From an uncultured bacterium (lineage in GTDB: Bacteria > Krumholzibacteriota > Krumholzibacteriia > Krumholzibacteriales > Krumholzibacteriaceae): a stretch of DNA of 58,066 nt. The stretch spans positions 1-58,066 of the forward strand of contig CAYWGA010000005.1 in assembly GCA_964457905.1 (NCBI GenBank), read 5' to 3'. Below are positions 17,985 to 38,671 of this stretch, piece by piece. Made by a program: the position numbers and the translations under genes. Below the pieces are notes generated by a model, which saw nothing but the letters and a program-made list of their open reading frames with translations, was not told where the DNA came from and made no database searches. Each line of letters begins with the position of its first letter. The stretch's first letter is position 1.

Positions 17985-18013
17985 GCCTCTGCCTCCGTTT
18001 ATAAAACAGGTTG

Positions 18014-21000
18014 TCATCGCAGCATCACCATCTTCAGCGTCCGCTCGTAGTCGCTCGCTTCCATCCTGCAGAAGTAGATCCCGCTGGCTATAGAACTGCC
18101 CCTGTCGTTCGTTCCATCCCAGACAGCTTCGTATGTTCCCGCATCGAGGATCTCGTCGACGAGGACCCGCACAAGCCTGCCGGAGACATCATATACACGC
18201 ATCGAGACGTGTCCCTTCTCCTTCAGGCTGTACTTCAGTCTCGTAACCGGGTTGAACGGATTGGGGAAGTTCTGCGAGAGAGCCGTCGCCTTTGGCAGCT
18301 CAGCATCCATCGGCACGTACCAGAGGGTATTCCCGCAAAAGTTCATAAAATTACGGAAGAATTCATTTCTCGGCAGGCCATAAGCACTGGCGTTGCGGAT
18401 ATATTGGAAGCTGTGCCCGACCCATACGGTCCGTAGCGACTGACTGGCGTTGTTCAGCTGATCGGTGCAGATGCCGGCGTAGTACGAGAGATCGTTGTGG
18501 GCAGGGTATGCAAGCGCGTACTCCCCTGGACCCGTCGTCTCGAGAACATCGAAATTGTTAATGTAGGGACATCCTCCGAAGGCAAAATATGACAGTCCGC
18601 CAAAGGGGCTGTATCCGCCAACTCCCGTGATCATAGGCGAAACGATCCCTCCCTTGTTGACGCCGCCTGTCATCTCGAGGTAGCTGCCACTCGCCAGGGT
18701 GACGCCGCAGATCGTGCTGACGAGCTCGAGCGCGACTGCAGTCTGGGAGGTGGCAAGATCGGAGGCGGCATGGTCCCCCATCATCAGCAGGCCGACTTTG
18801 TGCTCGGAAACATTCATCCAGTCGATGAGGAGCTGCGCGTCGTTGCTCTTGTCCGAATTCTCTGTGCCCTCGCTGACGGTGCACGAATTCAGGTCCCCTG
18901 AATCAAACAACACTATTTCATAGGCGATGCAGAATATCGAAGAGGCGTCGGTCACCGAAGTATATGCGCCGATTCCGTTGCTCAGGGCCGATGATGGTCC
19001 GTTGACGTCGTACCTGTCGGGGATCTCATCAGTTCCCCACAGCATGTCCCAGAAGGTATAGTCGAAATAGGTCTGCACAGTGCCGTCGAAAGTACCGCGC
19101 CCATCGTAGTCATCGACATAGAGAAGGGCGGGAACAATCCTCAGTGTCGGCAGGCAGGTGAATTCGAGCAGCCTGCTCGTTCCGAAGAACGGGCTCGGCG
19201 GCATCGACTCGGCGTTAGCCGGATATGTGCCGCTGCTTCCGGCCTGCGAGTACGCCTTAAAGTAGTACTCGATCATGTAGCCGCGTGTGAAAAGAGAGTC
19301 GTTGAGGTCGATGCAGTATGCGTTCAGAGCGATGACGCCAGCCGACGAATGGGCCGGCTCGCAGAGCAGCGCCGTCCAGTCGCCGTCGTCGCTGACGTAG
19401 CTTCCGTAGTCGCCTTCGAGCTGAGGGCCGAAGAGGTCCGGTTTCGGATAGCTGGTGTTGCCGATATATGTAACGTTGACGTGGCAGTAGACCCTCGCTT
19501 CTCCCGTCGCCAGTGTGTCGAGGCCACCGGCCATCGGCGCCGCGACCCTTACTACTGCGGAATCACCCGGATCGATCCTGGTGAACTCGTTCCCCGGAGC
19601 GACATCGACCGCCATATCGGCACGGCATATCTCCTCCATCGGATCCGTGCTGGCATACACTTCCTGGGGGAAGGTGTCCTGGAAAAGCTCTGCCCGCCTG
19701 ACATTCCAGGCCGGGCCTCCGGTGCCGAATCTCAGGATCCTCACGTCGTCATACCAAGGCGCCGGAGTGTGCTCTTCACAGTCTCCGTATGTTCCATACC
19801 ACGCACCGCACATATCGATCACGCCGAGCGCCACCTGTATCGAATCAGAGGTAACGAGAGCGCTGATATCTTCGGTTGCGGTTATCCAGGCCCTGGAGGG
19901 TTCGTATGGGACCCAGATACCTTCCGTCCTCCATTTCCCGGGGCAGCTGCCTCCAAGGTTCCTTATCCTCCAGGTCCTGAAAACGAGGTTGTTGACAGGC
20001 AGGTCGACGTATGCGTTGTATTTCAGGTAAATGCCCCCGAGAATCGAGAGATCCCCCGGCGCTATAGTCAGTTCCTGCGATCCGTCATGCATGGCGGAAT
20101 ATCGAGTGAGATCTATCGGAGGAGAGACGATCATCTCGTCCTGGCAGGGATTCTCGACACCGCCCGTACCGGTGCAGAAAGGAGTATCGTAGAGGCCGGG
20201 GTAGTCCTCGCTCGGAAAGGAAGAGCCGTTGAAGAACATGATGAGAGAACTGCTATTGAATCCGCAGGGATCCCTGCTCTCAAGGCCGGCGGCAAGGCCA
20301 CCATAAGCACCGTATGCATAATTTACGCATGCTGTCCACCAGCCGCATTCCGACTCGCCGACAGAGTAGTTCTCGAAGTCCTCGTAATCGATTATTCGTT
20401 CGTTGTCCCATATGGTGATGCTGTCGATCATGCAGGCGCCATCCGTGTCGATATAGCCGTCCTCGTCTGACCAGGCGCCATCTGACTGGAACCGGAACCT
20501 CAGCTTTGTGCCCCACTTAATTGAAAACAATTCGTGGGAGACAACGGTATCAACAACGCCACTGTATGTATCCAGGACCTCCCAGTCGCAATAGCGACAA
20601 CACCAGTAGCAGCAGGCCACATCGGTCGAATATTCGAAGGTGACCAGATCGCGGCCGCTCTCTGTATCGCAGGCGAGGCGGTACGACACGTTGATGGTGT
20701 CTCCCGGATCATGGGGGATAGCGGCCGAGAAAAACTCGTCCCAGTCATTGCCGTACCCCGGCGCTGCAGCCCAGTTGCATGTGAAAAGACTGGGGCCGGA
20801 ATTTGGACGCACCCCACACCAGACAGACTTCGTTCCTTCCAGTGGAACGAGGCGGCCCCAGGAGCCTCCGCCCAGGCCGGCAAAATCGTCAACATGAAAG
20901 AAGGTGTCAGGAGCAACGGTATTGTCGACCTGCGTCCAGCCCTGCCAGTCGGCCGTTTCAAAGTCGTACCAGACGACCCGGTAGGTGTCGGCCGCTGCTG

Positions 21001-21169
21001 CAGGCGCGAGGCTCATCATCGCCTCGTACCCTGGGATGTCGAGATCGACCTCCCCGTAGTCCGGCCTGTAGAATATCGGCCGCTGCGTTTTCTTATCCTT
21101 CGCCTCCAGGCTCGAAAAGCCCGTGAATACGAGGATTACCGCGAGAGCTGCCAGCACTGCGCGTTTCAT
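18014..21169 (-). CDS. Giant secreted paralogue GP1 (unknown function) with FlgD-Ig/T9SS-type CTD
   Basis: 1055-aa ORF from 21181. The second ATG (21169, MKRAVLAALAVILVF) follows GGAGGGGGAG. Modules shared with GP2-GP6 include VVWYDFE..DWQGWT, FFHVDDFAGLGGG, LEGTKSVWCG, HTPAPWYDNV, RIDPGDSAVVRVAAP..GGLDTL, YCIDLNDSLFTRGYMIEYYFKAY, LLYVDDYDGRGTFDG and SDKSNDAQLLIDWMN. CTD: NFPNPFNPVTRLKYSLKEKGHVSMRVYDVSGRLVRVLVDE...KMVMLR. Confidence 0.85.
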   Translation of the reverse strand: MKRAVLAALAVILVFTGFSSLEAKDKKTQRPIFYRPDYGEVDLDIPGYEAMMSLAPAAAADTYRVVWYDFETADWQGWTQVDNTVAPDTFFHVDDFAGLGGGSWGRLVPLEGTKSVWCGVRPNSGPSLFTCNWAAAPGYGNDWDEFFSAAIPHDPGDTINVSYRLACDTESGRDLVTFEYSTDVACCYWCCRYCDWEVLDTYSGVVDTVVSHELFSIKWGTKLRFRFQSDGAWSDEDGYIDTDGACMIDSITIWDNERIIDYEDFENYSVGESECGWWTACVNYAYGAYGGLAAGLESRDPCGFNSSSLIMFFNGSSFPSEDYPGLYDTPFCTGTGGVENPCQDEMIVSPPIDLTRYSAMHDGSQELTIAPGDLSILGGIYLKYNAYVDLPVNNLVFRTWRIRNLGGSCPGKWRTEGIWVPYEPSRAWITATEDISALVTSDSIQVALGVIDMCGAWYGTYGDCEEHTPAPWYDDVRILRFGTGGPAWNVRRAELFQDTFPQEVYASTDPMEEICRADMAVDVAPGNEFTRIDPGDSAVVRVAAPMAGGLDTLATGEARVYCHVNVTYIGNTSYPKPDLFGPQLEGDYGSYVSDDGDWTALLCEPAHSSAGVIALNAYCIDLNDSLFTRGYMIEYYFKAYSQAGSSGTYPANAESMPPSPFFGTSRLLEFTCLPTLRIVPALLYVDDYDGRGTFDGTVQTYFDYTFWDMLWGTDEIPDRYDVNGPSSALSNGIGAYTSVTDASSIFCIAYEIVLFDSGDLNSCTVSEGTENSDKSNDAQLLIDWMNVSEHKVGLLMMGDHAASDLATSQTAVALELVSTICGVTLASGSYLEMTGGVNKGGIVSPMITGVGGYSPFGGLSYFAFGGCPYINNFDVLETTGPGEYALAYPAHNDLSYYAGICTDQLNNASQSLRTVWVGHSFQYIRNASAYGLPRNEFFRNFMNFCGNTLWYVPMDAELPKATALSQNFPNPFNPVTRLKYSLKEKGHVSMRVYDVSGRLVRVLVDEILDAGTYEAVWDGTNDRGSSIASGIYFCRMEASDYERTLKMVMLR

Positions 21170-21197
21170 CTCCCCCTCCATTTCCTTTTGTCGGTCG
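21071..21197 (-). repeat. Near-identical copy of the 5' leader plus signal-peptide coding DNA (partner 24241-24367)
   Basis: By eye, about five mismatches in ~127 nt against 24241-24367. The segment spans the SD, both ATGs and the codons for MEGEMKRAVLAALAVILVF.GFSSLEAKDKKTQRPIF. Confidence 0.85.
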
Positions 21198-21231
21198 GCT
21201 TGTCCTGTTTCTTTCTATATTCGTATCGTCT

Positions 21232-24200
21232 TTATCTCAACATCACCATCTTCAATGTTCTCTCGTAGTCAGTCGCCTCCATGCGGCAGAAGTAGATCCC
21301 GCTGGCAGTCGCGCGGCCCTCGTTGTTCGTGCCGTCCCAGACCGCCTCGTACAACCCGGCCTCGCGGACCTCGTCGACGAGCACGCGGACCAGCCTGCCG
21401 GAAACATCATAGACACGCAGTTTGACGTGCCCCTTCTCCTTCAGCGCGAACTTCACCCTCGTGACTGGATTGAACGGGTTGGGGAAGTTGTCCGAGAGGC
21501 TGGTCGCCTTAGGCGTTTCTGTATCGCACCTGTCCTGACTGACGCCGTTTTCAAAAAACACCAATACATTATGGAAGAAGCTGTACCTTGCCGGGGAATG
21601 GTAATTATCGGTGTTTCGGATGTACTGGAGGCTGTGCCCGACCCAGACGGTCCTGAGGTCCTGGCTGGCGTTGTTAAGCTGGTCTGTTGAGATGCCTGCA
21701 TAATACTGGAGACCGTCAAAGTCAGGATATGAAAGCGCGTACTGCCCAGGGCCGGTCGTCTCCAGGACATCGAAGTCATTGACATAGGGACATCCACCAG
21801 CCACGAAATACGACAGATTATCGAACGGGCCACCCGTAACTCCCGTTAGCAGAGGCGACGCGACACCACCACCGCTGAAACCACCCGTCATCTCGAAGTA
21901 GCTGCCTGTCGACAGGGTGACCCCTGAGATCGTTCTGACCAGTTCGAGAGCGACGGCCGTCTCGGAGCCGGCAAGGTCGGAGGCGATCTCGTCCCCCATC
22001 ACGAGCAGGCCGACCTTGTGCTCAGATACGTTCATCCAGTCGATGAGGAGCTGTGCATCGTTGCTCTTGTCCGAATAATCCCTTCCCTCGCTGATTGTGC
22101 AGCTGTTCAGGTTCCCCGAGTCGAATATGACATTTTCGTATGCCGTACAGAAGATCGACGAAGCATCGGTCACCGAGGTATATGCGCCAATGCCATTGCT
22201 CAGCGCCGAGGAAGGGGCATTGACGTCATACCTGTCGGGTATGTCATTAATCGTAGGAATGTTACACTCGTACGACCAATCCCAATAGAGCTGCGCGACT
22301 CCATTGAAGGTACCCCGTCCATCGAAATCGTCGACGTACAGTATGCTGGGAACCGTCCGCAATGTCGGCAGGCATGTGAATTCGAGAAGATTGCTCGTCC
22401 AGGAATGGTAAGGAAGCGGCATCGTTTCGGCATTAGCCGGGTATGTAGTGCTGTTTCCATCAAGGTCGTAAGCTTTAAAATAGTATTCGATCATGTACCC
22501 GCGTGTGAACAGGGAGTCATTCAGATCGATGCAGTACGTGTTCGACACGTCATACCCTTCGGGATATTGGGCCTGATCGCACAAAAGCACCGTCCAGTCA
22601 CCGTCATCGCTTTCATACCTGCCGTAGCTTCCCTCCAGCTGGGGCCCGAAGAGATCGGGCTTGCCGTCCAGACCTAGAAAAGTGACGTTTACGTGGCAGT
22701 AGACCTTCTCCTCTCCCGTAACAAGCGTATCGAGTCCCCCGGAGGAAGGAGCAGCCACCCTGATCACGGCCGAATCACCCGGATCTATGCGATCGTAATC
22801 GTCGTACGCAGCAATATCCATCGCCATATCCGCCCGGCAGAATTCCTCCATCGGGTTGGAGCTTGCCTCTACTTCCTGCGGAAATGTGTCCTGAAATAGT
22901 TTGCCACGGTCGGCATGCCACTGAGGGCCGACGGTCGAATGCCTGTAAAGACGGACGTTGTCGAACCAGGGCGACGGTGTGTGGCTGGAGCAATCGTATA
23001 TAAACCATGGATAACAAAGGTCGATAACTGAAAGGATTACCTGCAGCGAGTCCCCCTGGACGAAGTCCGAGATAGAGACATCCGTTTCGATATATTCTGC
23101 TTCATCGCCATAGTACAGGACTCCCCGATCCTCCCACTGCCCCGGGCAGCCGTTCACGATGTTCCGTGTCTTCCACATGTAGAAGACACCATTGAAGTTG
23201 GGAAGATCTCGATATACTGAGAACCTCAGGCGATAACCACCGAGCCCTGACAGTTCCCCGGATGGAATCTCCTGGTCTTGCGTTTTGTCGCAATTGCCGC
23301 TGTATCGATTCAGATCAATGATGGGTGAGGAAACAGATTCGTTCTGACAATACCCCTCTTCAACGTCACAAAGCGGCGTTACCGGAAGGCCGGGGTAATC
23401 CGTGCTCATCCAGGTAGAACCTTCAAAGAAGACTATCTGGGAGGATAAATTCCAGTTGCAGGGGTCCCGGTCTGACAGATTTGTCGCAATACCCGAAAAC
23501 ATTCCATATCCGTCTGTGCCGGGACGGCAGTGCCAGAAATCAGTGTCATGGTCGCCGGCATCCGCATCCTCAAAATCCTCGAAGTCTATCAGGCCGTTCT
23601 CGTCGGAAACGGTGATACTGTCGATAATACATGCTCCATCGGTATCAAGGCGGCCGTCCGAGTCGGAGACCGCATGGTCCGAATGGAAATGGAAGCGCAG
23701 TTTTGTCGCGGCCGCGGTGCTGATCATTGCATGTGTTGCCACCGTATCAAGTCGACCGCTAATAGAGGCGACCCACTCCCACTGTCCCCCGGAAAAATAC
23801 TCGACATATACATTATCACGGTCCGGCTCCGAGTCGAATACGCCATGATATGTAAGTGTCAGCTGCCCGGTGAATGTAAACGGCTCAGATATCAGATCCT
23901 GGTCCCATCTGTTTCCATAGCCGGGAGGCGAGGCCCACGAGCAGACATAGAAATCATCTCCCGGTCTCACTCCGCACCAGACAGACTTGGTTCCCTCTAT
24001 CGGAACAAGGCGGCCAAAATCGCCGCCTCCAAGACCGGCAAAATCGTCTATGTGGAAAAAAGTGTCGGGCTGTGCTGTGTTGTCGCTTCTCGTCCACCCC
24101 TGCCAGTCCATATGATCGAAGTCATACCAGACCACGCAATAGGTATCGACGGCTGCGACAGCCGCTGCCGGTGCGAGGTCCATCATCGACCCGCCGCACT

Positions 24201-24339
24201 CCGGGGGATCGATATATGTTTCCTCGTAATTCGGCCTGGAGAATATCGGCCTCTGTGTTTTCTTATCCTTCGCCTCGAGGCTCGAAAAGCCCGCGAATAC
24301 GAGGATCACCGCGAGAGCTGCCAGCACTGCGCGTTTCAT
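21232..24339 (-). CDS. Giant secreted paralogue GP2 with FlgD-Ig/T9SS-type CTD
   Basis: 1039-aa ORF from 24351, preferred start 24339 as for GP1. Same module order. The N-terminal module is very close to GP3 (VDTYCVVWYDFDHMDWQGWT ... GRLVPIEGTKSVWCGVRPGDDFYVCSW). Confidence 0.85.
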   Translation of the reverse strand: MKRAVLAALAVILVFAGFSSLEAKDKKTQRPIFSRPNYEETYIDPPECGGSMMDLAPAAAVAAVDTYCVVWYDFDHMDWQGWTRSDNTAQPDTFFHIDDFAGLGGGDFGRLVPIEGTKSVWCGVRPGDDFYVCSWASPPGYGNRWDQDLISEPFTFTGQLTLTYHGVFDSEPDRDNVYVEYFSGGQWEWVASISGRLDTVATHAMISTAAATKLRFHFHSDHAVSDSDGRLDTDGACIIDSITVSDENGLIDFEDFEDADAGDHDTDFWHCRPGTDGYGMFSGIATNLSDRDPCNWNLSSQIVFFEGSTWMSTDYPGLPVTPLCDVEEGYCQNESVSSPIIDLNRYSGNCDKTQDQEIPSGELSGLGGYRLRFSVYRDLPNFNGVFYMWKTRNIVNGCPGQWEDRGVLYYGDEAEYIETDVSISDFVQGDSLQVILSVIDLCYPWFIYDCSSHTPSPWFDNVRLYRHSTVGPQWHADRGKLFQDTFPQEVEASSNPMEEFCRADMAMDIAAYDDYDRIDPGDSAVIRVAAPSSGGLDTLVTGEEKVYCHVNVTFLGLDGKPDLFGPQLEGSYGRYESDDGDWTVLLCDQAQYPEGYDVSNTYCIDLNDSLFTRGYMIEYYFKAYDLDGNSTTYPANAETMPLPYHSWTSNLLEFTCLPTLRTVPSILYVDDFDGRGTFNGVAQLYWDWSYECNIPTINDIPDRYDVNAPSSALSNGIGAYTSVTDASSIFCTAYENVIFDSGNLNSCTISEGRDYSDKSNDAQLLIDWMNVSEHKVGLLVMGDEIASDLAGSETAVALELVRTISGVTLSTGSYFEMTGGFSGGGVASPLLTGVTGGPFDNLSYFVAGGCPYVNDFDVLETTGPGQYALSYPDFDGLQYYAGISTDQLNNASQDLRTVWVGHSLQYIRNTDNYHSPARYSFFHNVLVFFENGVSQDRCDTETPKATSLSDNFPNPFNPVTRVKFALKEKGHVKLRVYDVSGRLVRVLVDEVREAGLYEAVWDGTNNEGRATASGIYFCRMEATDYERTLKMVMLR
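21284..21490 (-). repeat. CTD-coding DNA nearly identical to 24484-24690
   Basis: A perfectly identical run cggcagaagtagatcccgctggcagtcgcgcggccctcgttgttcgtgccgtcccagaccgcctcgtac is followed by further near-identical sequence. By eye, about ten mismatches over ~205 nt. Confidence 0.85.
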
Positions 24340-24367
24340 CTCCCCCTCCATTTCCTTTTGTCGGTCG
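24241..24367 (-). repeat. Leader plus signal-peptide repeat, partner of 21071-21197
   Basis: See 21071-21197. The two genes diverge strongly just downstream of this block. Confidence 0.85.
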
Positions 24368-24431
24368 TCTTGCCTGGTTCCTTTCTCAAATATTCACCCT
24401 GCCAGCCGGTATGCCGGCGGGTTCCGGCAAT

Positions 24432-26195
24432 CTATCTCAGCAGGACCATCTTGAGGGTCCGTTCGTAATCATTCGCCTCCATCCGGCAGAAGTAGATCCC
24501 GCTGGCAGTCGCGCGGCCCTCGTTGTTCGTGCCGTCCCAGACCGCCTCGTACGACCCGGCCTCGCGGACCTCGTCGACGAGCACGCGGACCAGCCTGCCG
24601 GAGATATCATAGACACGCAGCCTGACGTGCCCCTTCTCCTTCAGTGCGAATTTCACCCTCGTTACGGGATTGAACGGGTTGGGGAAATTCTGCAGCAGTC
24701 CCATCGCCGCCGGCGGCGTGCGGTCGTCCGTAGGAGGCAAGTACCCGCTCCCGTTTACACGCTGCGCATAGATCCCATTACTGGTCCCATCGAATGCGTA
24801 ATTATTGTACCAGGTGAAGATCGCTCCCCCTGTGCCGTCCGGAAGTATCCTTTGTCCCCGGGGATAGTACTCATCGGGGAAATCGCAGAGGGTCAGGCCG
24901 CCTTCCTGCCACAGAACCTCTCCATTACCGGTTACGCGTTGAGCGTAAACAGATTCGATATCAATCCCGAACGCAAGAGGTCCGGAGGCACTGTAAGAGT
25001 AAGGCGCCGGCCATCCGGTCGGCCACGCGACTATCGCTCCACCGAAACCGTCCGGCGCTATCTCCGGGGGCATGTTATCCCAATAGATTCCGCTCTCTCT
25101 TATCGATATCCCGCCGGCAGGCCAAAGCGAATCTCCCCCGGCCGAGAGATGCTGGACATAGATAGCCATCCTGTGCGTAACGGCGTCTCTCGTGTCGCAC
25201 CAGGCATAGAACGCACCGCCCGCACCATCGGGCGCAACGCTCGCCCATAGCTGAATATTCTGCTCAGTGCACACCGGAATGCCGTCGACCGGCCATACAG
25301 GGAGACCGTCTGGATCGATACGCTGGGAATAGATGTCTCGATCTGGATATTCAAGCAGATTTTCCCAAACACACGTCACGCCTCCTGCTCCGTCCGCCAC
25401 AGCATCGTGATCGTTCTGATCCCCGGCGGCATCGCATACCGGCACTCCACCCGATGACCATAGAAGGGTGCTGTCAGCAGCGATTCTCTGGGCGTAGATG
25501 TCGATTTCACCGCCGCGCAGGTCGGCCCAGACCGCAATCGCGCCGCCAGTTTCATCAGTTACCGCTATAGCCTCTTCCTGGTCTCCCGTTTCGGTACATA
25601 CGTCGATCCCGTCGGCAGGCCAGAGAAGAGCCCCTGTCGTATCGATACACTGAGCGAATATATCCTTGTCGCCGTTCCTGTCATCGTGCCATACGATGAT
25701 AGCTTCACCATCACAATCCACAACGCTTATCCGGGGGTAGAACCAGTGGGAGGTGTTCGCTTCAGTGCAGACAGCGATGCCGTTCGCGGCCCAGAGCGGA
25801 TTGCCCCCGGGGCTTATGCGCTGAGCGTAGATGTGGGATATGCCGGTCCTGAAGTCCGCCCAGACGATGATCGCCCCGTTTGCGCCGTCAGAGACTACCT
25901 GTGGCCGGAGTTGTCCTGAAGGAGCGGTACACACAGGAACGCCTCCCGCAGCCCAGAGAGGAATCCCGTCGCTGCCGAGCCTCTGAGCGTAGATGTCCGG
26001 ACTGTCAGTCAGGTTATAGTATGTCTGCCAGACGATTATCGATCCGCCCGCCCCGTCCGATATGATCTCGGGGTTATACTCATCGCCAGTGACCGTCGCC
26101 ACCGGAACACCGTTTTCCTGCCACTGGGCCTGAGCGCCGCAGAACGGGATCACGAGAAACAGGATCGTCCATAGAGAGATTTGTCTCATCAACAC
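24432..26195 (-). CDS. Secreted 8-repeat (propeller-like) protein with FlgD-Ig/T9SS-type CTD, inserted inside the giant-paralogue array
   Basis: 587 aa, apparently GTG-initiated, with signal peptide ...FCGAQA|QW. Eight ~50-aa repeats fit G.P(L/V)W...G(I/V).VC.......v.(S/P)DG.GGAI(I/V)VW.D.R....DIYAQR(I/V). The CTD is almost identical to that of GP2 and GP3. Confidence 0.85.
   Translation of the reverse strand: MLMRQISLWTILFLVIPFCGAQAQWQENGVPVATVTGDEYNPEIISDGAGGSIIVWQTYYNLTDSPDIYAQRLGSDGIPLWAAGGVPVCTAPSGQLRPQVVSDGANGAIIVWADFRTGISHIYAQRISPGGNPLWAANGIAVCTEANTSHWFYPRISVVDCDGEAIIVWHDDRNGDKDIFAQCIDTTGALLWPADGIDVCTETGDQEEAIAVTDETGGAIAVWADLRGGEIDIYAQRIAADSTLLWSSGGVPVCDAAGDQNDHDAVADGAGGVTCVWENLLEYPDRDIYSQRIDPDGLPVWPVDGIPVCTEQNIQLWASVAPDGAGGAFYAWCDTRDAVTHRMAIYVQHLSAGGDSLWPAGGISIRESGIYWDNMPPEIAPDGFGGAIVAWPTGWPAPYSYSASGPLAFGIDIESVYAQRVTGNGEVLWQEGGLTLCDFPDEYYPRGQRILPDGTGGAIFTWYNNYAFDGTSNGIYAQRVNGSGYLPPTDDRTPPAAMGLLQNFPNPFNPVTRVKFALKEKGHVRLRVYDISGRLVRVLVDEVREAGSYEAVWDGTNNEGRATASGIYFCRMEANDYERTLKMVLLR
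24484..24690 (-). repeat. CTD-coding repeat, partner of 21284-21490
   Basis: Same sequence as in GP2, although the upstream passenger domains are unrelated. Confidence 0.85.
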
Positions 26196-26207
26196 ATACT
26201 CTTTCTG

Positions 26208-29200: not shown

Positions 29201-29300
29201 CCTTGGTATCTTCTTCTTTGGGACGTGCCTGGACGGCATCAGGCACAAACACTGTCGCGACGAGAATCACCGCAAGCGCGATGAACAGCGAGGATTTCAT
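26208..29300 (-). CDS. Giant secreted paralogue GP3 with FlgD-Ig/T9SS-type CTD
   Basis: 1030 aa. Signal MKSSLFIALAVILVATVFVPDAVQA with AAGGAGAG SD. Same module order. CTD: NFPNPFNPVTRVKFALKEKGRVKLRVYDVSGRLVRVLVDEIREAG...KMVMLR. Confidence 0.85.
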   Translation of the reverse strand: MKSSLFIALAVILVATVFVPDAVQARPKEEDTKGLRPVVSVPDELRAEGEALLESMGMAPAAAAVDTYCIVWYDFEHMDLQGWSIIDETAQIDTFFHVDDFAGLGGGDFGRLLPIEGTKSAWCGVRPGDDFYMCTWQSAPGYGNSWDQVLTTDSFSFTGLLTFSYHGVFDSEDDWDKTYVEYCAGEDWTEIMSVDGALDTVAIHMLPLPLAATKLRFHFISDGSWSDHDGLFDTDGACIIDSITVADINGLIDFEDFESAAVGGHDTDFWHCRTGVDPFGTYTGLAANLQDKDPCGSNMRSQIVFFLGSPWMSDDYPGMPVTPFCAGGSYYLPPCQDITVVSPVIDMTRYSGSCDEVQDLDIPAGKLPELGGVLYRFTVYRDLPLSNLVFYNWAVMNMVDGCPTQWRKRTSVYYGGDREYIQMSHDVSDLISSDQMQCRLTVFDLCDDWYGTYGDCAEHTPAPYFDNVRVYRYSTAGPQWSVRNLDLFQDTFPQDDGEMESFCRADMANDISPGDEFSTIDPGDSAVVTVGGWYGGELDTLPTGEAMVHFHCNVHFLGPDGKPDLTGPQLEGTYGTWLSTDGGGWDIFLCDPAETSAGNIAPDKYAIDLNDSLFTRGYMVEYYFKAYGMDGVATTYPHNAEEPAGDHYEFTCLPTLREVPGVLYCDDFHNRGTFDGLVQTYMDPTLKAVNPAGVSLPDRYDTNGPTSGVSNGIGAYVSATDASSIFCTAYFTVIHDSGDLYSLTITEGTENSDKSNDAKLFVDWMRNSEHYAGLLVMGDRVAYDLSLSASAIAAEFMSTLCGVTLEHYSYYDLTGGDSDGGMVIPLITGVAGGPFDGLTYYADGGCPLISEFDVLEANGPGQYALQYPDYNSTEYYAGIFTDQLNDAGQIIKTMWVGHSLMAFRNAGDGIPARNMFLRQVYNLFMTGGSGDITGTEIPKVTSLSDNFPNPFNPVTRVKFALKEKGRVKLRVYDVSGRLVRVLVDEIREAGSYEAVWDGTNNEGRATASGIYFCRMEAADYERTLKMVMLR

Positions 29301-29315
29301 CCTTCTCTCCTTACA

Positions 29316-32300
29316 TCACCTCAACAGGACCATCTTGAGTGTGCGCTCGTAATCTGGCGCCTCCATACGACAAAAGTATATTCCGCTTGCGGTCGCTCGG
29401 CCGCGGTCATTCGCGCCGTCCCATACAACTTCGTACGCTCCTGCTTCACGGACCTCGTCGATGAGAATGCGGACGAGCCTGCCTGAGACATCATATATGC
29501 GTATCGACACGTGGCCCTTCTTCGCCAGGCCGAATTTCACCCTCGTCGACGGGTTGAACGGGTTGGGGAAGTTGTCGGCCAGCGACGTCACGGCGGGGAT
29601 CTCCGCCGGAGTCGCCCCCCAGGGCGCCCTCTCGAAAAACTGTGTGGCCATGTAGACAAGAGAGGTCCTTTCCGGCCATGGATAGACGCCTGTCATGCTT
29701 TTCAGGCTGTGACCGATCCATACGGTCCTCAACGGCTGGCTGGCATTGTTGAGCTGGTATGTGTAAATCCCCGCATAACGCTCCAGGCTGTTGTAGTCGG
29801 GATACTTGAGGCCGTATTCCCCCGGCCCTGTCGCCTCGAGGACATCGAAATCCTTCACAAACGGGCATCCGCCGGAGAGGTGGTACTCCAGACCGTCGAA
29901 CGGCCCGTTGGCAACGCCGGTGACCAGAGGATTAAACACTCCTCCTCCTTCGTGGCCGCCGGTCAAATCGAAATAGCTGTTGTCCACGAGAGTGACCCCG
30001 CAGAGGATACTCATAAGATGGAGAGCGCTGGCCGCCGCCGAGTTCGACAGGTCGTAGGCCACCTGGTCGCCCATCACGAGCAGGCTGACATCATGCTCCG
30101 AGTCATCCATCCAGTCGATGAGCAGCCCGGCATCGTTCGATTTGTCTGAATGTTCAGTTCCCTCAGACATAGTAACCGAGTTGAGGTCGCCGGAATCGAA
30201 GATCACCATCTCGTAGGCCGTGCAGAAGATCGAAGAAGCATCGTTCACATTCGTATATGCTCCGACTCCATTGCTCACGCCCGACGAAGGACCGTTGACG
30301 TCATAACGGTCGGGTGGTATCTCGGTCACCCCGGGGTTGATACAGGAGGCGTTGAGATTGAAGGGCAGCTCCCAGTATGTCTCCACCGTACCCTCAAAGG
30401 TCCCGCGGTTGTGATAGTCGTCGACAAACAGGGCCCCGGGGACCTCTCTCAGGGTCGGCAGACAGGTAAACTCGAAATGTTTACCGCCCGCCGCCTCGGC
30501 GCTGGCAGGGCATGTCGACGAGTTGCCGAACAGATCGTAGGCCTTGAAGTAGTATTCGATCATGTATCCGCGGGTGAACAGTGAATCGTTCAGGTCGATG
30601 CAGTACTTGTCCGGCGCAATATTGCCGGCAGAAGTGGCGGCCGGCTGGCAGAGAAAGACGTCCCAGCCGTTCATGTCGGTCTGCGCCCAGTCGCCGTAAT
30701 TGCCTTCGAGCTGGGCCCCGGTGAGATCGGGTTTTCCGTCTGGACCGAGGAAGACGACGTCGCAATGGAAGTAGACCCTCGCCTCTCCGGTACCCAGCGT
30801 ATCCAGTCCGCCTGCGAGTGGAGCGGCGCAGCTGACGACTGCCGAGTCACCCGGGTCGATACGGCCGAACTCATCACCGGGGGCGAGGTCGTTTGCCATG
30901 TCTGCCCGGCAGAACTCTTCCATCGGATCCTGGCTGCCGCTGACCTCCTGCGGGAATGTATCCTGGAACAGGTCGAAGTTCCTGACTGACCAGGCCGGGC
31001 TCCCCGATCCGCACCGGTATACGCGGACATTGTCGTACCACGGTGAGGGCGTATGTTCAGCGCAGTCTCCGTACGTTCCATACCATGCGTCGCACATGTC
31101 GACTACGCCGAGGCGGATCTGCAGAGTGTCGGCGCTTATGTATCTACTGATATCATGAGGGTAGCTTTCCCATTCTTTGCTGCCCCAGTAGTAATAGATT
31201 ATCTCGTTGCCCCTCCATAGGCCGGGGCAGCCATCCTCTATTAACCTGACATTCCATCCCTTGAATACGAGATTGCTCAGGGGAATATCGACGTAGGTAT
31301 CGAAACGCAGGTAGGTCGTAGTCAATCCCGGCAGCTCACCGGGGGGAATAGCGGCATCCTGAACGTGATCGCGTCCCGTGCTGAAACTGGTCAGGTCGAT
31401 CAGCGGGGAAAGGATATCCTCATTCTGGCACGGAGCCTCATGTCCGCCTCCGCCGGTGCAGAACGGCGTCTCGTAAAGACCGGGGTAATCCTCGCTAGGA
31501 TGGGGCGAACCGTGAAAGAAAGTGATCACCGTGCTGAAGTTGCTCCGGCAGGGATCGAGGTCCTCAAGGCCGGCGGAGAGTCCCGAGTAGATACCAAATC
31601 CATCCACCGCATATGCTCTCCAGAACACCAGGTCGGTCTCGCCGACATCGTACATTTCGAAATCCTCGTCGTCGATCAATCCACCTGTGTCTGAAACCGT
31701 CACATTATCGATGATGCACGCACCATCCGTATCGTGAAGGCCGTCATGGTCCGACCAGGCGCCGTCTGACATGAAGTGGAAGAATAGCTTTGTGCAGACC
31801 CCCGCAGTGAGAACCGTATGATACATCGTCGTATCGATGACTCCATCGAAAGTCTCCAGCACGGTCCTGCTGTTGAAGTCGTCATAACCCACCTCGACAT
31901 AATCGTACGGAGCTTCTGTATCGCAGACGAGGTCATATGTCCAACCGACAGGACCCAAAGGATGAACAACGGCCATCAATGTCTGATCCCAGCCGTTCCC
32001 GTAACCGGGAGCGGACGCCCAGCTGCAGGTATATAGGTCGTTGACGCCCCTTATGCCGCACCACATCGATTTTGTGCCCTCTATCGGGACGAGGCGGCCG
32101 AAGGAGCCGCCGCCAAGACCGGCGAAATCATCGACGTGGAAGAAGGTGCCTTTCTGCGCCGTATTGTCGGACTGGGTCCATCCCTGCCAGTCCTGATGAT
32201 CGAAATCGTACCAGACAACACAGTAGGTATCGACCGCGGCTGCCATAAGGTTGGCCTGCGGCGGTGAACACCCGCTTTCCGGTAACGTTTCATCGGCAAC

Positions 32301-32408
32301 CGGCTGATAGAAGCGGGGCTGCTCCTCCTTCTTCTCCCTGGCAGAAGCAACTGTCTGTATCGAGATTACGAGCAGGACGATGAGCATAGCTGCCAGCATG
32401 CGCCTCAT
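29316..32408 (-). CDS. Giant secreted paralogue GP4 with FlgD-Ig/T9SS-type CTD
   Basis: 1052-aa ORF from 32474. I prefer M23 (32408; MRRMLAAMLIVLLVISIQTVASA) because AAGGAGAGTCCG precedes it, as it does for GP5. Same module order. Confidence 0.85.
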   Translation of the reverse strand: MRRMLAAMLIVLLVISIQTVASAREKKEEQPRFYQPVADETLPESGCSPPQANLMAAAVDTYCVVWYDFDHQDWQGWTQSDNTAQKGTFFHVDDFAGLGGGSFGRLVPIEGTKSMWCGIRGVNDLYTCSWASAPGYGNGWDQTLMAVVHPLGPVGWTYDLVCDTEAPYDYVEVGYDDFNSRTVLETFDGVIDTTMYHTVLTAGVCTKLFFHFMSDGAWSDHDGLHDTDGACIIDNVTVSDTGGLIDDEDFEMYDVGETDLVFWRAYAVDGFGIYSGLSAGLEDLDPCRSNFSTVITFFHGSPHPSEDYPGLYETPFCTGGGGHEAPCQNEDILSPLIDLTSFSTGRDHVQDAAIPPGELPGLTTTYLRFDTYVDIPLSNLVFKGWNVRLIEDGCPGLWRGNEIIYYYWGSKEWESYPHDISRYISADTLQIRLGVVDMCDAWYGTYGDCAEHTPSPWYDNVRVYRCGSGSPAWSVRNFDLFQDTFPQEVSGSQDPMEEFCRADMANDLAPGDEFGRIDPGDSAVVSCAAPLAGGLDTLGTGEARVYFHCDVVFLGPDGKPDLTGAQLEGNYGDWAQTDMNGWDVFLCQPAATSAGNIAPDKYCIDLNDSLFTRGYMIEYYFKAYDLFGNSSTCPASAEAAGGKHFEFTCLPTLREVPGALFVDDYHNRGTFEGTVETYWELPFNLNASCINPGVTEIPPDRYDVNGPSSGVSNGVGAYTNVNDASSIFCTAYEMVIFDSGDLNSVTMSEGTEHSDKSNDAGLLIDWMDDSEHDVSLLVMGDQVAYDLSNSAAASALHLMSILCGVTLVDNSYFDLTGGHEGGGVFNPLVTGVANGPFDGLEYHLSGGCPFVKDFDVLEATGPGEYGLKYPDYNSLERYAGIYTYQLNNASQPLRTVWIGHSLKSMTGVYPWPERTSLVYMATQFFERAPWGATPAEIPAVTSLADNFPNPFNPSTRVKFGLAKKGHVSIRIYDVSGRLVRILIDEVREAGAYEVVWDGANDRGRATASGIYFCRMEAPDYERTLKMVLLR

Positions 32409-32476
32409 CGGACTCTCCTTTCCCCTCGGTCTATGTGACCGGGTTGAGGGTATCTCCCGTTCAGCCCATTTCATAT

Positions 32477-35400
32477 CTATCTGAGCAGGACCATCTTCAC
32501 GGTTCGCTGATATTCATCCGCCTCCATCCGGCAGAAGTATATTCCGCTCGCTGTCGCGCTGCCTCGATCGTTAGCGCCGTCCCATACAACTTCGTACGCT
32601 CCTGCTTCACGGACCTCGTCGACCAGTACCCGGACGAGCCTCCCCGATACGTCATAGACTCGCATCGAGACGTGCCCCTTCTGTTTCAGGCTGAACGAGA
32701 CCCGCGTCACGGGATTGAATGGGTTGGGGTATATTCCGGCCAGGGCGGTGACCGCGGGAACCTTATCGTCTGTAATATCCGCACTGAACCCGGGGCCGTG
32801 GAAGATGCCCCTCCAGGCCGCATTGAGGAATTCGTTTCTGGCCAGTGTGCCAAGACTTCTGTCTCTTATCCGCATGAAGCTGAATCCGTACCACTGGGTA
32901 TTTACCTGGCGCCCAAGGGAATTCTCGCCCTCGGCCCATACTCCCGCCAGATATTGCTGCCCGTCATATTCAGGATAGGCGAGGCTGGGGATCTCGATCC
33001 CGGTCGTTTCAAAGACATCGAAATGATCGATTACCGGACAACCTCCGTTAATGTAAAAATTGTCGCCGATAAAAGGCCCGGTGGGTAATCCGGTTATGTA
33101 AGGATTGACCACCCCTCCTCCGTCATATCCTCCCGTAAGTTCATTATAACTTGGCGAAACCAGCGATATTCCGAACCAGTCGCTGAGCAGGGCCTGCCCG
33201 TCTGCGTACCTGGAGATGTCAGACGCTGCATTGTCTCCCATCACCATCAGACCATGCCTGCCGCCCCACGGAAGAGTATCGAGATAATCCAGGAGGAATC
33301 CGATGTCGTTACTTTTGTCTCCCATGCTTTCCCCGGAGACAAGGGTTCCATCGGACAAATCTCCCGAATCCCACATTATCTCGGAGTAGAATGTGTGAAA
33401 ATGCGCCAGCCGGGCCCTGCTGCCGAGCCCGTTGCCGGCCATCGCCGAAGGCTGGTTGATATCATACCTGTCGGGCCAGTCATGGTAGGTCGCGAGAACA
33501 GACGTGATCGTATTATCGTAGTACGTCTGCACGGTCCCCTTCCAGGTTCCCCTGCCGTCGAAATCATCCACGTAAAGCATACTGGGTACGACACGGCCGG
33601 AAGGCAGGCATTCGAATTCGAACATGTATCCCGTTTCGTGCCAGTCATAATATGACGCAGGGGCAGCCTCGGCATAAGTCGGCAGAGTCGTACTGACCCC
33701 GTCGAGATCGAAGGCTTTGAAGTAGTACTCGATGAAATACCCGCGTGTGAAGAGAGAGTCGTTCAGGTCGATGCAATATTTATCCGGTGCAATAGCCCCT
33801 GATGAGTTGCGGGCAGGCTCGCAGAGCAGCACGGTCCAGTCACCGTCGTCACTTGCGTAGGATCCATAATTACCCTCGAGCTGCGGGCCGAAGAGGTCGG
33901 GCTTCCCGTCGTAGGCGAGGAAACGGGTGTTGCAGTGGAAATAGACCCTCGCCTCGCCGGTGCCGAGGGTATCGAGCCCGCCTGTGTTCGGCGCCCAGCA
34001 GCTGACGACCACCGAGTCGCCGGGAACGATGCCGGGATAAGACGGAGGGCTGATGTCGGCAGCCATATCGGCACGCACATAGCTCTCGATATCATCGGTC
34101 GATGGGAAATTGTCCTGGAATAAGTCCGCTCCCTGGTACGACCACTGGGGGCCGACGGTCGAATACCTCTGGATCCTGACATTGTCGAACCACGGAGCCG
34201 ACGTATGCTCCTCGCAGTCGCCGTATATCCCGTACCACAGATAGCACATGTCGACGACGCCCAGGGCGACCTGGATCTCATTGGACTCGACCATGCCGCT
34301 GATGTCGTGCTCGAGCCAGTGATAGAGCCCGTCCTCGCCGTAGTACTTGATCAGCGGCTCCGACTGCCACTGCTGCGGGCATCCATCGACGATGCTCCTA
34401 ACCTTCCATGTGTGGAAGACGAGGTTCTCGATCGGATTGTCGAGGTAGACCTGGTAGATCAGCTTGTACCCGCCCAGATCATCGAGCTCCCCGGGCGGTA
34501 TGGCTGTATCCTGTGTCTCATCGCAGCTGGAACTGTACCCGTTCAGGTCGATGACGTACGATACGACCATCTCATCCTGGCACGGCGCGTTTATCCCCCC
34601 GCTCCCCGTGCAGAAGGGGGTGGGGAACAATCCCGGCCCGGGGGGTTCAACCCACCATATGTGATTGAAAAAGATGATCTGCGTCGCGAAGTCATCGTTG
34701 CAGGGGTCCCTGTCCACGAGGTTGTTTGCCAGGCCGCTATTGATGCCATACCCGTCTCCGGCATTTGCATACCAGATCCCCTCTTCAGTCTCCCCGATCC
34801 CGGCAGTTTCGAAATCCTCGAAATCTATCAGCCCGTTCTCGTCGCTTATGGTAATGCTGTCGACAACGAACGCACCGTCAAAATCCCTCACTCCATCCTG
34901 GTCCGAGATAGATCCGTCAGACCAAAAATGGAATCCCAATTTGCAGGCTGCCGAGGCCGAAAACAGCTGGTGAGTCGCGACCCCGGATTCCCTGCCGTGA
35001 TGACGGGTTATTTCCGTCTCCTGGTAAGCCGGGGCATGTATCACGCTTATGTAGTCGCTTCTCGGCTCTGTATCAACAGAGTACTTGTACGACCAGGTCA
35101 CTATCCCGGTGTGTGGTATGACCCAGGAACCGAGGCTCTGGTCCCAGTTATTCCCGTACCCCGGTGCCGTCCCCCAGGAGCAGAGATAGGTATCCGTACC
35201 GGGGCGGACGCCGCACCACATCGACTTCGTCCCCTCGAGCGGGACGAGCATACCGTGAGTGCCGCCTCCGAGACCGGAAAAGTCATCCACATGGAAGTAA
35301 GTTCCTGCCTGGGCGGTATTGTCGACGCTCGTCCAGCCCTGCCAGCTCATCGCCTCGAAATCGAACCAGACGATACAGTAGGTGTCGACCGCGGCGATCG

Positions 35401-35560
35401 TGTTCGCTCGCATATCAAATCCGTCAATGCCTGAAACATCTTCCCTGATGACCGGCTTGTAGAAGCGTGGCTTTTCCTGTTGTTTTTCCTCTGCCGGTGC
35501 GGGAGTCCCTATTGCGCTAGCAAGAACTGCCGCGAGAACAAAGAACACAACGCGTCTCAT
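32477..35560 (-). CDS. Giant secreted paralogue GP5 with FlgD-Ig/T9SS-type CTD
   Basis: 1027 aa. Signal MRRVVFFVLAAVLASAIGTPAPA with GGAAGGAGAGTCCG leader. The central core is almost identical in protein sequence to GP6. Confidence 0.85.
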   Translation of the reverse strand: MRRVVFFVLAAVLASAIGTPAPAEEKQQEKPRFYKPVIREDVSGIDGFDMRANTIAAVDTYCIVWFDFEAMSWQGWTSVDNTAQAGTYFHVDDFSGLGGGTHGMLVPLEGTKSMWCGVRPGTDTYLCSWGTAPGYGNNWDQSLGSWVIPHTGIVTWSYKYSVDTEPRSDYISVIHAPAYQETEITRHHGRESGVATHQLFSASAACKLGFHFWSDGSISDQDGVRDFDGAFVVDSITISDENGLIDFEDFETAGIGETEEGIWYANAGDGYGINSGLANNLVDRDPCNDDFATQIIFFNHIWWVEPPGPGLFPTPFCTGSGGINAPCQDEMVVSYVIDLNGYSSSCDETQDTAIPPGELDDLGGYKLIYQVYLDNPIENLVFHTWKVRSIVDGCPQQWQSEPLIKYYGEDGLYHWLEHDISGMVESNEIQVALGVVDMCYLWYGIYGDCEEHTSAPWFDNVRIQRYSTVGPQWSYQGADLFQDNFPSTDDIESYVRADMAADISPPSYPGIVPGDSVVVSCWAPNTGGLDTLGTGEARVYFHCNTRFLAYDGKPDLFGPQLEGNYGSYASDDGDWTVLLCEPARNSSGAIAPDKYCIDLNDSLFTRGYFIEYYFKAFDLDGVSTTLPTYAEAAPASYYDWHETGYMFEFECLPSGRVVPSMLYVDDFDGRGTWKGTVQTYYDNTITSVLATYHDWPDRYDINQPSAMAGNGLGSRARLAHFHTFYSEIMWDSGDLSDGTLVSGESMGDKSNDIGFLLDYLDTLPWGGRHGLMVMGDNAASDISRYADGQALLSDWFGISLVSPSYNELTGGYDGGGVVNPYITGLPTGPFIGDNFYINGGCPVIDHFDVFETTGIEIPSLAYPEYDGQQYLAGVWAEGENSLGRQVNTQWYGFSFMRIRDRSLGTLARNEFLNAAWRGIFHGPGFSADITDDKVPAVTALAGIYPNPFNPVTRVSFSLKQKGHVSMRVYDVSGRLVRVLVDEVREAGAYEVVWDGANDRGSATASGIYFCRMEADEYQRTVKMVLLR

Positions 35561-35578
35561 CGGACTCTCCTTCCTTAT

Positions 35579-38500: not shown

Positions 38501-38671
38501 GTCAAATCCGACGATGTCGGACACGTCCTCCCTGACCACCGGTTTGTAGAATCTCGGCTTGGCGACGATTTTGTCTTTTCCTTGTGATACTGAACCGACG
38601 GTGAGGATAAAAAGAACCACGAGCAGGACAAACCCCGCCGCGGCAGCGACTTTCATACCCGAGTTTTGCAT
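35579..38671 (-). CDS. Giant secreted paralogue GP6 (first gene of the array) with FlgD-Ig/T9SS-type CTD
   Basis: 1030 aa with GAGGGGGAG before the ATG at 38671 (alternative ATG at 38656). Signal ...FILTVGSVSQG. Same module order. Confidence 0.85.
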   Translation of the reverse strand: MQNSGMKVAAAAGFVLLVVLFILTVGSVSQGKDKIVAKPRFYKPVVREDVSDIVGFDPRANVIAAVDTYCIASYDFEQMNWQGWTQVDNTVQAGNFATVEDFAGLGGGSHGRLVPLEGSNSVWIGARPENYPALCNWPPGTYGYGNDWEQSLMAWGPDTLVEISYHLVCDTEEGKDIVTVGWFNGDGEIWATYSGVVDTVATHVIEKPYSTEWGAYYFFRFTSDAAVSDEDGLIDTDGAVIIDSITIVYDGSVFDYEDFESFAAGTAPYGRWYDKTGYAYGAYSELENNLVDLDPCANNFATIITFFTGSPYQSNIYPGLFDTPFCTGQMGLNEPCQDEMVISPVIALGRYSAGCDEHQDSDIPPAQLDDMGGYMLSYTAYLDNPVKNLVFHTWKVRNIEDGCPQPWLEDPVVRYYGDDGLWYRFEHDISSFVTGDSIQVALGVIDMCSAWYGIYGDCAEHTPAPWFDNVKVSRYSVVGPQWAYQGADLFQDNFPSTDEMESYVRADMAADISSPSYPGIVPGDSVVVSCWAPNAGGLDTLGTGEARVYFHCNTRFYGLDGKPDLFGPQLEGNYGSYASDDGDWTVLLCEPARTSFGAIAPDKYCIDLNDSLFTRGYMIEYYFKAYDLDGISTTLPPTWPPPSCCPERYFFEFTCLPTLRIISSTLYVDDFDGRGTPKGLVQTYMDPTFAAIASTAMEIPDRYDVNQPSAMAGNSLGSRARPIPFKFAYGMVYWDCGDLAEGTIISAFNGQDKSDDITFLIAWLDLLTYNRHGLLVLGDNVASDLSRYSDGLYLMEDWCGTSLAHSSFFEMTGGANGGGITSPLVTGVPGTPLEGQEFYLSGGCPLMADFDVLRPVGNGFSVLDYSEYGDSTASAAVFSEHDNATGTGVKTEWIGFSFMRIRNGISGFRTRNEFLNACGRLWFHGFGASPDITGDEIPAVMALAGNYPNPFNPVTRITFSLSHKSQVSLRIYDVAGRLVRVLVDETRDAGTYGAVWDGKNKNGHSTASGIYFCRMEADEYQRTVKMVLLR

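Follow-up and report, generated by a model that had tools for sequence, protein, structure and literature searches.

What are six neighbouring genes, each encoding a secreted protein of about 1030 residues without a nameable family, doing side by side in the genome of an uncultured bacterium? The question arises from contig CAYWGA010000005.1 (assembly GCA_964457905.1), of which positions 1 to 58,066 of the forward strand are the whole stretch of DNA analysed here (the window), and which comes from a member of the Krumholzibacteriota, an uncultured candidate phylum. An earlier reading of the bare sequence, made without database searches (the sequence-only reading), had described a tandem array of paralogues, GP1-GP6. 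It is well supported that these are genuine genes for exported proteins, that each protein ends in a C-terminal sorting domain (CTD) of the type associated with type IX secretion systems (T9SS), that the passenger consists of binding-type folds, and that they form an unnamed family expanded in one candidate phylum. Beyond this, our preferred interpretation, to which we assign a probability of roughly 0.5, is that the GPs are binding proteins exported by a T9SS and anchored at the cell surface, in which diversified heads sit on a conserved base. The six genes are:

18014-21181, minus strand: GP1, 1055 aa, the last GP gene of the array
21232-24351, minus strand: GP2, 1039 aa
26208-29300, minus strand: GP3, 1030 aa, the copy used for structure modelling
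29316-32474, minus strand: GP4, an open reading frame (ORF) of 1052 aa with a probable start near 32408
32477-35560, minus strand: GP5, 1027 aa
35579-38671, minus strand: GP6, 1030 aa, the first gene of the array

The ORF map of the window and a MAFFT alignment confirmed six real, co-directional minus-strand genes of 1027-1055 aa with a common layout, as had been described. The genes sum to 18.7 kb within a span of 20.7 kb, and the gaps between consecutive genes of the array measure 2-80 nt. Pairwise identity among the six proteins is 49-63%, with several hundred invariant columns, a similarity that, judged from the alignment, is far beyond chance, and the copies fall into two subgroups, GP1-4 and GP5-6, with GP5 and GP6 sharing 61% identity. 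The motifs quoted in the sequence-only reading were recovered in the alignment (VDTY..WYDFE, FFHVDDF.GLGGG, EHTPAPW.DNVR, IDPGDSAV/GIVPGDSVV, IDLNDSLFTRGY.IEYYFKA, EF.CLP, PDRYD, DKSND, GLLVMGD and GGCP); DKSDD occurs in GP6 only. Regarding GP4, the signal peptide begins at an internal methionine, residue 23 of the ORF, and therefore the real start is probably near 32408, which gives about 1030 aa; the gene call for GP4 in a public collection (P0039) is also 1030 aa. The first 22 codons of the ORF (MKWAEREIPSTRSHRPRGKESP; 32409-32474, minus strand) precede the signal peptide and are probably untranslated.

Export signals are found at both ends of all six proteins, in agreement with the sequence-only reading. 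A signal-peptide-like N-terminus was read by eye from each of the translations, with a basic n-region, then a hydrophobic core followed by an AxA-like site, such as ...SSLEA/KD or ...AVQA/RP (the slash marks the site). At the other end, the model TIGR04183 of NCBIfam scores 25.2-33.5 bits in 6/6 GPs (cut-off 23) and the Pfam model PF13860 (FlgD_ig) 32-38.5 bits (cut-off 27), while for PF18962 only GP5 and GP6 rise above the cut-off of 27. In the copy that was modelled, this domain lies at:

26211-26465, minus strand: GP3 T9SS type A/FlgD-Ig-like C-terminal sorting domain, residues 946-1030, recognised by TIGR04183 and PF13860

An equivalent CTD terminates every GP as well as a 587-aa protein encoded between GP2 and GP3, the DNA repeat family D1 has seven copies, and at least nine CTD-bearing proteins are encoded in the window. 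An unrelated protein of 391 aa (47439-48614, minus strand) also ends in a FlgD_ig/T9SS-type CTD. No component of the T9SS machinery (SprA/Sov, PorK/L/M/N, PorU/PorV) was found within the window, and our literature search returned nothing linking Krumholzibacteria to T9SS.

The passenger between these two signals is where the proteins cease to be recognisable. Searches of the six GPs against Pfam and NCBIfam recognised only the last ~85 residues, that is, the CTD; 47 family members searched singly against Pfam at E<=10 gave no recurrent passenger match, again only the CTD; and sequence searches of the PDB with profiles built from 6 and from 52 members returned only FlgD, matching the CTD. About 880 residues of each GP are thus invisible to all three resources, and our literature search retrieved no paper describing the family, so the earlier statement that no family could be named still stands. 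Nor did we obtain a high-confidence full-length match to InhA/M6 peptidases, C25 peptidases or a fusion of a carbohydrate-binding module (CBM) with an enzyme, the kind of match that the sequence-only reading had named as speaking against it.

Structure prediction was more informative. GP3 was modelled by AlphaFold2 as two halves from an 84-sequence alignment, residues 58-480 (predicted local distance difference test, pLDDT, 93.2; predicted template modelling score, pTM, 0.85) and residues 476-945 (pLDDT 92.1; pTM 0.91), and the following domains were delimited:

28551-29129, minus strand: GP3 jelly roll 1, residues 58-250, the distal 'head'; AlphaFold2 pLDDT 93; CBM22, reelin and MAM among its Foldseek matches
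27876-28550, minus strand: GP3 jelly roll 2, residues 251-475, ending in DCxEHTPAPWFDNVR
27366-27875, minus strand: GP3 Ig-like beta sandwich, residues 476-645, with LFQD, RADMA.D, PGDS and IDLNDSLFTRGY (AlphaFold2)
26490-27365, minus strand: GP3 flavodoxin/GATase1-like alpha/beta domain plus small beta sandwich, residues 646-937 (DSSP)

The N-terminal half of GP3 consists of two all-beta jelly rolls, which substantiates the MAM/ConA-like folds surmised from the sequence. Its structural neighbours by Foldseek, all with E values of 1e-8 to 1e-5, were reelin repeats, the tandem CBM22 of Xyn10C, the meprin MAM domain and InhA2 accessory domains, together with beta-galactosidase sandwich domains and a chondroitinase CBM. 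The root-mean-square deviation (rmsd) over both jelly rolls is large, indicating that the individual folds match and not the two-domain arrangement. As a test of internal duplication, jelly roll 1 was compared with jelly roll 2 by hhalign and no relationship was detected (probability 0.3%). The GPs also carry a D-rich loop, SDG.WSD.DG..DTDG, which is putatively Ca-binding. In jelly roll 1 of GP1, a 10-residue Cys-rich insertion, VACCYWCCRYC (DVACCYWCCRYCDW; residues ~188-198, window ~20590-20620), contains two CxxC motifs and is absent from the other five copies.

In the C-terminal half, the Ig-like sandwich matches the immunoglobulin superfamily (IgSF) domain of PPAD over 130 columns with an rmsd of 4.0 (Foldseek). 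The domain that follows shows alternating strands and helices (DSSP on the AlphaFold2 model) and, together with the small sandwich, carries the motifs LYVDD, PDRYD, DKSND, LLVMGD, GGCP and FDV. The sequence-only reading had listed this C-proximal module and had missed its flavodoxin/GATase1-like alpha/beta fold. Among the top 50 Foldseek matches, the GH42 arabinopyranosidase 5xb7 was the sole significant neighbour of this domain taken together with the small sandwich. Comparison of the C-terminal half with viral structures in BFVD gave nothing interpretable. According to AlphaFold2, DSSP and Foldseek, neither of the two half-models contains a TIM barrel, a metzincin/thermolysin-like fold or a caspase-like fold.

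Several known families were considered and rejected. Membership in the M6/InhA metallopeptidases finds no support, because HEXXH is absent from 6/6 GPs and there is no full-length profile match; moreover, NF052323 aligns to the GP CTD only, with 26-32 bits against a cut-off of 600. Gingipain-like C25 peptidases were dismissed on the lack of a PF01364 match, of an invariant His in the alpha/beta domain and of any gingipain or PorU among the top 50 Foldseek matches, and a caspase/C25 reading of the GGCP motif was dropped for want of a partner His and of a structural match. The only conserved Cys, that of GGCP, is kept at 70-90%, and its position is between two beta strands and away from any strand-helix elbow. 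Enzymes resembling class I glutamine amidotransferases (DJ-1/PfpI, PepE) were discarded because no His or Ser is conserved across 109 diverse representatives, and GH42 hydrolases because a (beta/alpha)8 barrel is missing from both models (DSSP) and PF02449 does not match. An SGNH-hydrolase reading of DKSND as the GxND block fails on the missing GDS nucleophile block and DxxH block. Likewise, membership in the MAM domain or in a CBM family (e.g. PF00629) finds no match at E<=10 in the 47 members, leaving a fold-level likeness only. Regular-expression searches for HEXXH, HXXEH, GxSxG, GDSL and DxDxDG gave no conserved occurrence, including HXXEH at any conserved position. Altogether, with HEXXH absent, no catalytic core in the models and neither His nor Ser invariant within the alpha/beta domain, the statement that the GPs show no peptidase or glycosidase signature is upheld.

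The constant portion of the family is what we call the base, the strongly conserved 460-aa C-terminal part composed of the Ig-like sandwich, the alpha/beta domain and the small sandwich. Among 1.84 billion cluster representatives (50% clustering), a profile of the base matches 614 proteins at E<=1e-3, of which 162 reach E<=1e-30. Its offset varies widely in these proteins, which are 550-1641 aa long, some of the short ones being fragments. In 16 outliers scanned with Pfam, the partners of the base were LVIVD, SBBP, Kelch or BNR propellers or Chlamydia-PMP repeats, and an enzyme domain was recognisable in 0/16; the CTD follows the base directly in 13/16, with Kelch, PMP or LVIVD domains intervening in 3/16. 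One outlier (P0208) is labelled Latescibacteria. An outward search from the BNR-fused member P0247 told us little about the base, as the widespread BNR propeller swamped the results. Because the base recurs at variable offsets behind different domains, it is best regarded as a constant element that receives interchangeable heads of the binding type; and because those heads are only of the binding type, the role in adhesion, substrate capture or scaffolding put forward by the sequence-only reading gains support.

The pattern of conservation is uneven along the passenger, in keeping with a constant base and exchangeable heads. Mean identity among the six copies is highest in the Ig-like domain (66%), the most conserved domain of the passenger; it is 54% in jelly roll 1, 50% in jelly roll 2 and 43% in the terminal sandwich. 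Among 52 diverse members, down to ~30% identity, jelly roll 1 retains the fewest invariant residues, only G82, W83, G117, G124 and G236 being nearly invariant, whereas jelly roll 2, the Ig-like domain and the alpha/beta domain retain many; in jelly roll 2 these include H459, D466 and several Cys, all nearly invariant. In the base, numbered according to the profile of the C-terminal half, the charged positions D15, R30, D32, D50, D133, D136, E175, D224, R225, D227, D283 and D379 are conserved in >=93% of the 109 representatives, as are hydrophobic and Gly residues. The motifs LYVDD, FDSGD and LLVMGD of the window copies lie at strand C-terminal ends or helix N-caps (DSSP).

Taken together, these observations suggest the following course of events for each GP. 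By analogy with Bacteroidota cargo carrying type A CTDs, the protein would be synthesised with a Sec signal peptide, T9SS would recognise the ~85-aa CTD and carry the protein across the outer membrane, and the protein would then probably be anchored on the cell surface. The two jelly rolls, of the CBM/MAM type and with putative Ca sites, would act as a distal, diversifying head that binds glycans, particles or other cells, and the 460-residue base next to the anchor as a rigid pedestal that may oligomerise and may bind metal. Six copies would provide one cell with a panel of binding specificities. We infer T9SS export, surface anchoring, ligand binding and the pedestal role from these analogies and folds, and binding proteins seem the most likely explanation because the GPs are built from binding-type folds without a recognisable enzyme.

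Several points weigh against this interpretation. T9SS export is a prediction from the CTDs of the cargo, and the binding role of the heads is a prediction from their folds. About a dozen Asp, Glu and Arg residues of the base are kept down to ~30% identity (in LFQD, RaD.A.D, pGDs, DLnD, E..LP, DRyD, D283 and FDv), and in the alpha/beta domain several of the conserved acidic and Arg residues cap helices at their N-terminus or occupy the C-terminal ends of parallel strands (DSSP). Strand C-terminal ends are where alpha/beta enzymes and sites of the metal-ion-dependent adhesion site (MIDAS) type place their active residues, so the charged set may represent structural Ca sites or, judging from the models, a metal-dependent binding or catalytic site. 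The match to 5xb7 is a weak guide (291 columns, E 9e-5, query TM-score, TMq, 0.29, rmsd 7.7, 10% identity) and presumably involves the non-catalytic domains B (GATase1-like) and C (sandwich) of GH42, the aligned target range being unreported. Finally, solo homologues (L078, L079) sit among unrelated housekeeping genes, and such neighbourhoods are uninformative about function.

The alternative that withstands the evidence best, unlikely as we consider it, follows from the same residues. The base could be a new catalytic module, for example a carboxylate-based glycoside hydrolase, lyase or esterase or a metal-dependent hydrolase, with jelly rolls and propellers as substrate-binding accessories, as in CBM-enzyme fusions. 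The base, and not the head, is indeed the family constant; its acidic and Arg positions listed above, other than R30, are conserved to >=94% in the 109 representatives, several of them at strand C-termini or helix N-caps. Carbohydrate-active enzymes are often joined to accessory heads such as BNR or Kelch propellers and jelly rolls of the CBM type, and GH53 and GH57 genes are present in the window. However, the family profiles gave no Pfam, NCBIfam or PDB sequence match to enzymes, Foldseek revealed no enzyme core (the GH42 match being presumably to the non-catalytic domains B/C), and the base has no invariant His or Ser, with a GGCP Cys conserved to only about 70-90%. When Asp residues cluster and are conserved in beta-rich extracellular proteins, they usually form structural Ca sites; the GH genes of the window lie outside the transcription unit of the array, and solo copies have unrelated neighbours. 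The placement of the conserved charged residues is the main reason why we retain a cryptic enzyme as an alternative.

The distribution and age of the copies bear on whether binding proteins or building blocks are being multiplied. A search with the GP3 passenger yielded at least 679 clusters at 90% identity; almost all of the best 120 relatives are ~1030 aa long, those that bear a name are annotated as 'hypothetical' or 'T9SS type A sorting domain-containing', and every named one derives from metagenome-assembled genomes (MAGs) of Candidatus Krumholzibacteriota. Full-length relatives are confined to Krumholzibacteriota MAGs (one genome per species), with two contigs in a bin labelled Patescibacteria. 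Several of these MAGs hold at least 4-9 copies each, and tandem arrays of 2-4 copies are common, for example at loci L003, L004, L007, L012, L019 and L030.

Each GP has a closer relative in another metagenome (63-84% identity) than among its paralogues in the window (at most 63%). Third-codon identity at codons for identical residues is 36-56% in nearly all combinations of domain and pair, which we take as probable near-saturation of synonymous sites in a sequence of 57% GC. Nearly saturated synonymous sites, with protein identity still at 49-63%, and closer relatives elsewhere indicate that the copies are old and have been individually kept under purifying selection, and an ancient, maintained array appears to fit functional divergence better than recent amplification. 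Gene order is also kept at loci L003 and L007, with a GP6-like gene first and a dockerin gene after the last GP. Third-codon identity is raised in three patches, namely the 5' ends of GP1 and GP2 (21080-21181 vs 24250-24351; 84%, the first 35 residues differing only at T20A), the CTDs of GP2 and GP3 (21232-21522 vs 26208-26498; 78%) and the region of jelly roll 2 and the Ig-like domain in GP5 and GP6 (62%). These patches suggest local gene conversion that keeps secretion signals homogeneous.

A structural surface coat, in which the GPs are fibrillar building blocks or resemble those of a surface layer (S-layer), the GATase1-like domain makes lattice or oligomer contacts and the paralogues are alternative or co-assembling subunits, is in our estimation quite unlikely. 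The S-layer of Tannerella (TfsA/TfsB) is T9SS-exported, and the GP genes, which look like an operon, are long, present in many copies and furnished with CTDs, and they take up a considerable part of the genome. The middle domain B of GH42 forms its trimer interface, so the fold-level likeness of the base to GH42 would accord with oligomerisation, as would a strongly conserved protein interior beneath a variable exposed head. Against such a coat, six old paralogues with their own closer relatives elsewhere suggest distinct functions and not interchangeable subunits, and a uniform lattice accounts less well than displayed binding domains for the members headed by propellers or PMP repeats.

The neighbourhood of the array supplies one more candidate function. 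The sequence-only reading, right about the six genes, had not mentioned a seventh gene in the 1.8-kb gap between GP2 and GP3 or the dockerin genes downstream. The features of this co-directional run and of the region preceding it are:

38672-39152, no strand assigned: divergent intergenic region 5' of GP6, 481 nt, probable promoter region of the array (ORF map)
24432-26195, minus strand: seventh gene, a 587-aa secreted repeat protein with a GP-type CTD and ~8 'DGAGGAIIVW..DIYAQRI' units in its translation
17346-18017, minus strand: small secreted Cys-rich dockerin protein 1, a 223-aa ORF whose first ATG overlaps the GP1 stop codon
16664-17308, minus strand: dockerin paralogue 2, 214 aa, PF00404 at E 1.8e-5, with repeat families D8, D15 and D17
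14260-16794, minus strand: CARDB protein with a T9SS CTD, an ORF of up to 844 aa, matching PF07705, PF18962 and PF13860
13590-14222, minus strand: dockerin paralogue 3, 210 aa, the last gene of the co-directional run

The 587-aa protein is probably a beta-propeller, to judge from its repeats; TIGR04275 scores 41 bits on it, below the cut-off of 85, and its internal DNA repeats make up family D16. At the DNA level its CTD shares 86% identity with the CTD of GP2, and homologues occur beside a GP homologue at L043 and also at L055 and L057. The three small dockerin paralogues are Cys-rich, have signal peptides, end in a type-I-like dockerin (PF00404) and lack a CTD. In the protein encoded at 17346-18017, the dockerin matches PDB 2y3n_B at E 1.6e-5, and its gene is a probable operon partner of GP1, given the overlap. 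A dockerin homologue lies directly after the last GP gene at L001, L003 and L007, and at L043 a dockerin-like gene adjoins a GP homologue of 38% identity. The CARDB gene is interleaved with the dockerin genes, and a homologue follows the dockerin genes at L001; its ORF begins at a TTG, with a plausible signal peptide only much further downstream, and the true start is probably internal. No cohesin partner for the dockerins was found in the window.

That the GPs serve as docking platforms, scaffolds for the co-encoded small dockerin proteins in a cohesin-dockerin-like assembly outside the classical cellulosome producers, is improbable despite the three paralogues immediately downstream, the recurrence of this order at other loci and the occurrence of cohesin and dockerin domains in T9SS cargo of related phyla (e.g. 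P0305, P0347), given that the GPs have no PF00963 match, that no cohesin is among the top 50 Foldseek matches of either half, that without a CTD the route of the small proteins to the surface is uncertain, and that the surroundings of most family members elsewhere contain no dockerin gene. The docking relationship is only a lead, because the small proteins lack a CTD and the GPs lack a cohesin-like domain.

Regarding transcription, consensus scans for promoters and terminators gave counts no higher than in shuffled sequence, and the single sigma-70-like match upstream of GP6 (minus strand, 38957-38928) is weak and not significant. A GC-rich hairpin (GGCGGGCCCCGCC) with a T-rich tail lies at 13555-13567 (minus strand), 23 nt past the last dockerin gene, and is a candidate terminator of a transcription unit of ~25 kb starting upstream of GP6. 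Just downstream of the GP/dockerin run, a Ser/Thr protein kinase that includes FlgO-like and TPR regions is encoded at 11294-13507 (minus strand); homologues of this kinase are also found near GP genes at L027, L029 and L032. Upstream of GP6 and divergent from it, a cluster encoding DUF4912, a GH57 branching enzyme and a GH57/DUF3536 protein (glycogen-type metabolism) occupies 39153-44460 (plus strand). This cluster also lies beside a GP gene at L007, L014, L019, L022 and L028, with synteny in five related MAGs, and it is a unit separate from the array.

Some of the alternatives are not mutually exclusive with a binding role. A more speculative idea is that the base is an unrecognised functional module of surface proteins of the Fibrobacterota-Chlorobiota-Bacteroidota (FCB) group, either with a new carboxylate- or metal-dependent, MIDAS-type catalytic or adhesion site atop the alpha/beta sheet or as an oligomerising pedestal that receives the dockerin proteins. 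We consider this quite unlikely; if either form were true, an unnamed family would furnish Krumholzibacteriota with a surface apparatus that is modular and resembles a cellulosome. In kind, the GPs are familiar, modular surface proteins that make up a T9SS cargo family specific to one lineage; in detail, they contain an uncatalogued, conserved three-domain base and stand in old tandem arrays. They thus amount to a well-documented orphan family and do not reveal a new principle. A family definition (two jelly rolls plus the Ig/GATase1-like/sandwich base, usually next to a T9SS-type CTD) would clear many 'hypothetical protein' annotations, and the base, with its 614 representatives, would give Pfam a new domain model. 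Besides, the GPs are concrete candidates for how Krumholzibacteriota attach to or capture substrates, and their importance would rise if the conserved acidic cluster were a true catalytic or metal-dependent adhesion site.

Compared with known systems, the GPs resemble first of all the T9SS type A cargo RgpB and PPAD of Porphyromonas gingivalis, which likewise have a modular passenger between a Sec signal peptide and a beta-sandwich sorting domain of ~80 aa at the C-terminus. In RgpB and PPAD an Ig-like domain precedes the CTD, and the IgSF domain of PPAD resembles the Ig-like domain of the GPs structurally; however, the GP passenger has no catalytic domain and its Ig-like domain is internal and not adjacent to the CTD. 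The CTD of the GPs is of the FlgD_ig-like flavour common in FCB-group phyla other than Bacteroidota, and in their host, a member of the Krumholzibacteriota, a T9SS is predicted from the cargo genes. Similar size and a T9SS CTD end are shared with InhA/M6 and with NF052323, 'T9SS-dependent M6-like inactivated metalloprotease' (1043 aa), and the InhA2 accessory domains (4yu5/4yu6) are structural neighbours of the GP jelly rolls, but the GPs have neither HEXXH nor a metzincin/thermolysin-like catalytic fold in their models. A consecutive pair of beta jelly rolls is also present in CBM22-1-CBM22-2 of Xyn10C (4xup), meprin MAM (7uae) and reelin (6a48); unlike these, the GPs have no Pfam membership at E<=10 and the orientation of the two domains differs (rmsd ~20-25 over both). 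For the alpha/beta domain and small sandwich, GH42 (5xb7), presumably through its domains B and C, is the best structural neighbour, and both the GPs and GH42 domain B lack the Cys-His-Glu triad of class I amidotransferases. In contrast to GH42, the GPs have no TIM-barrel domain A and match neither PF08532 nor PF02449, so that the likeness is one of fold only.

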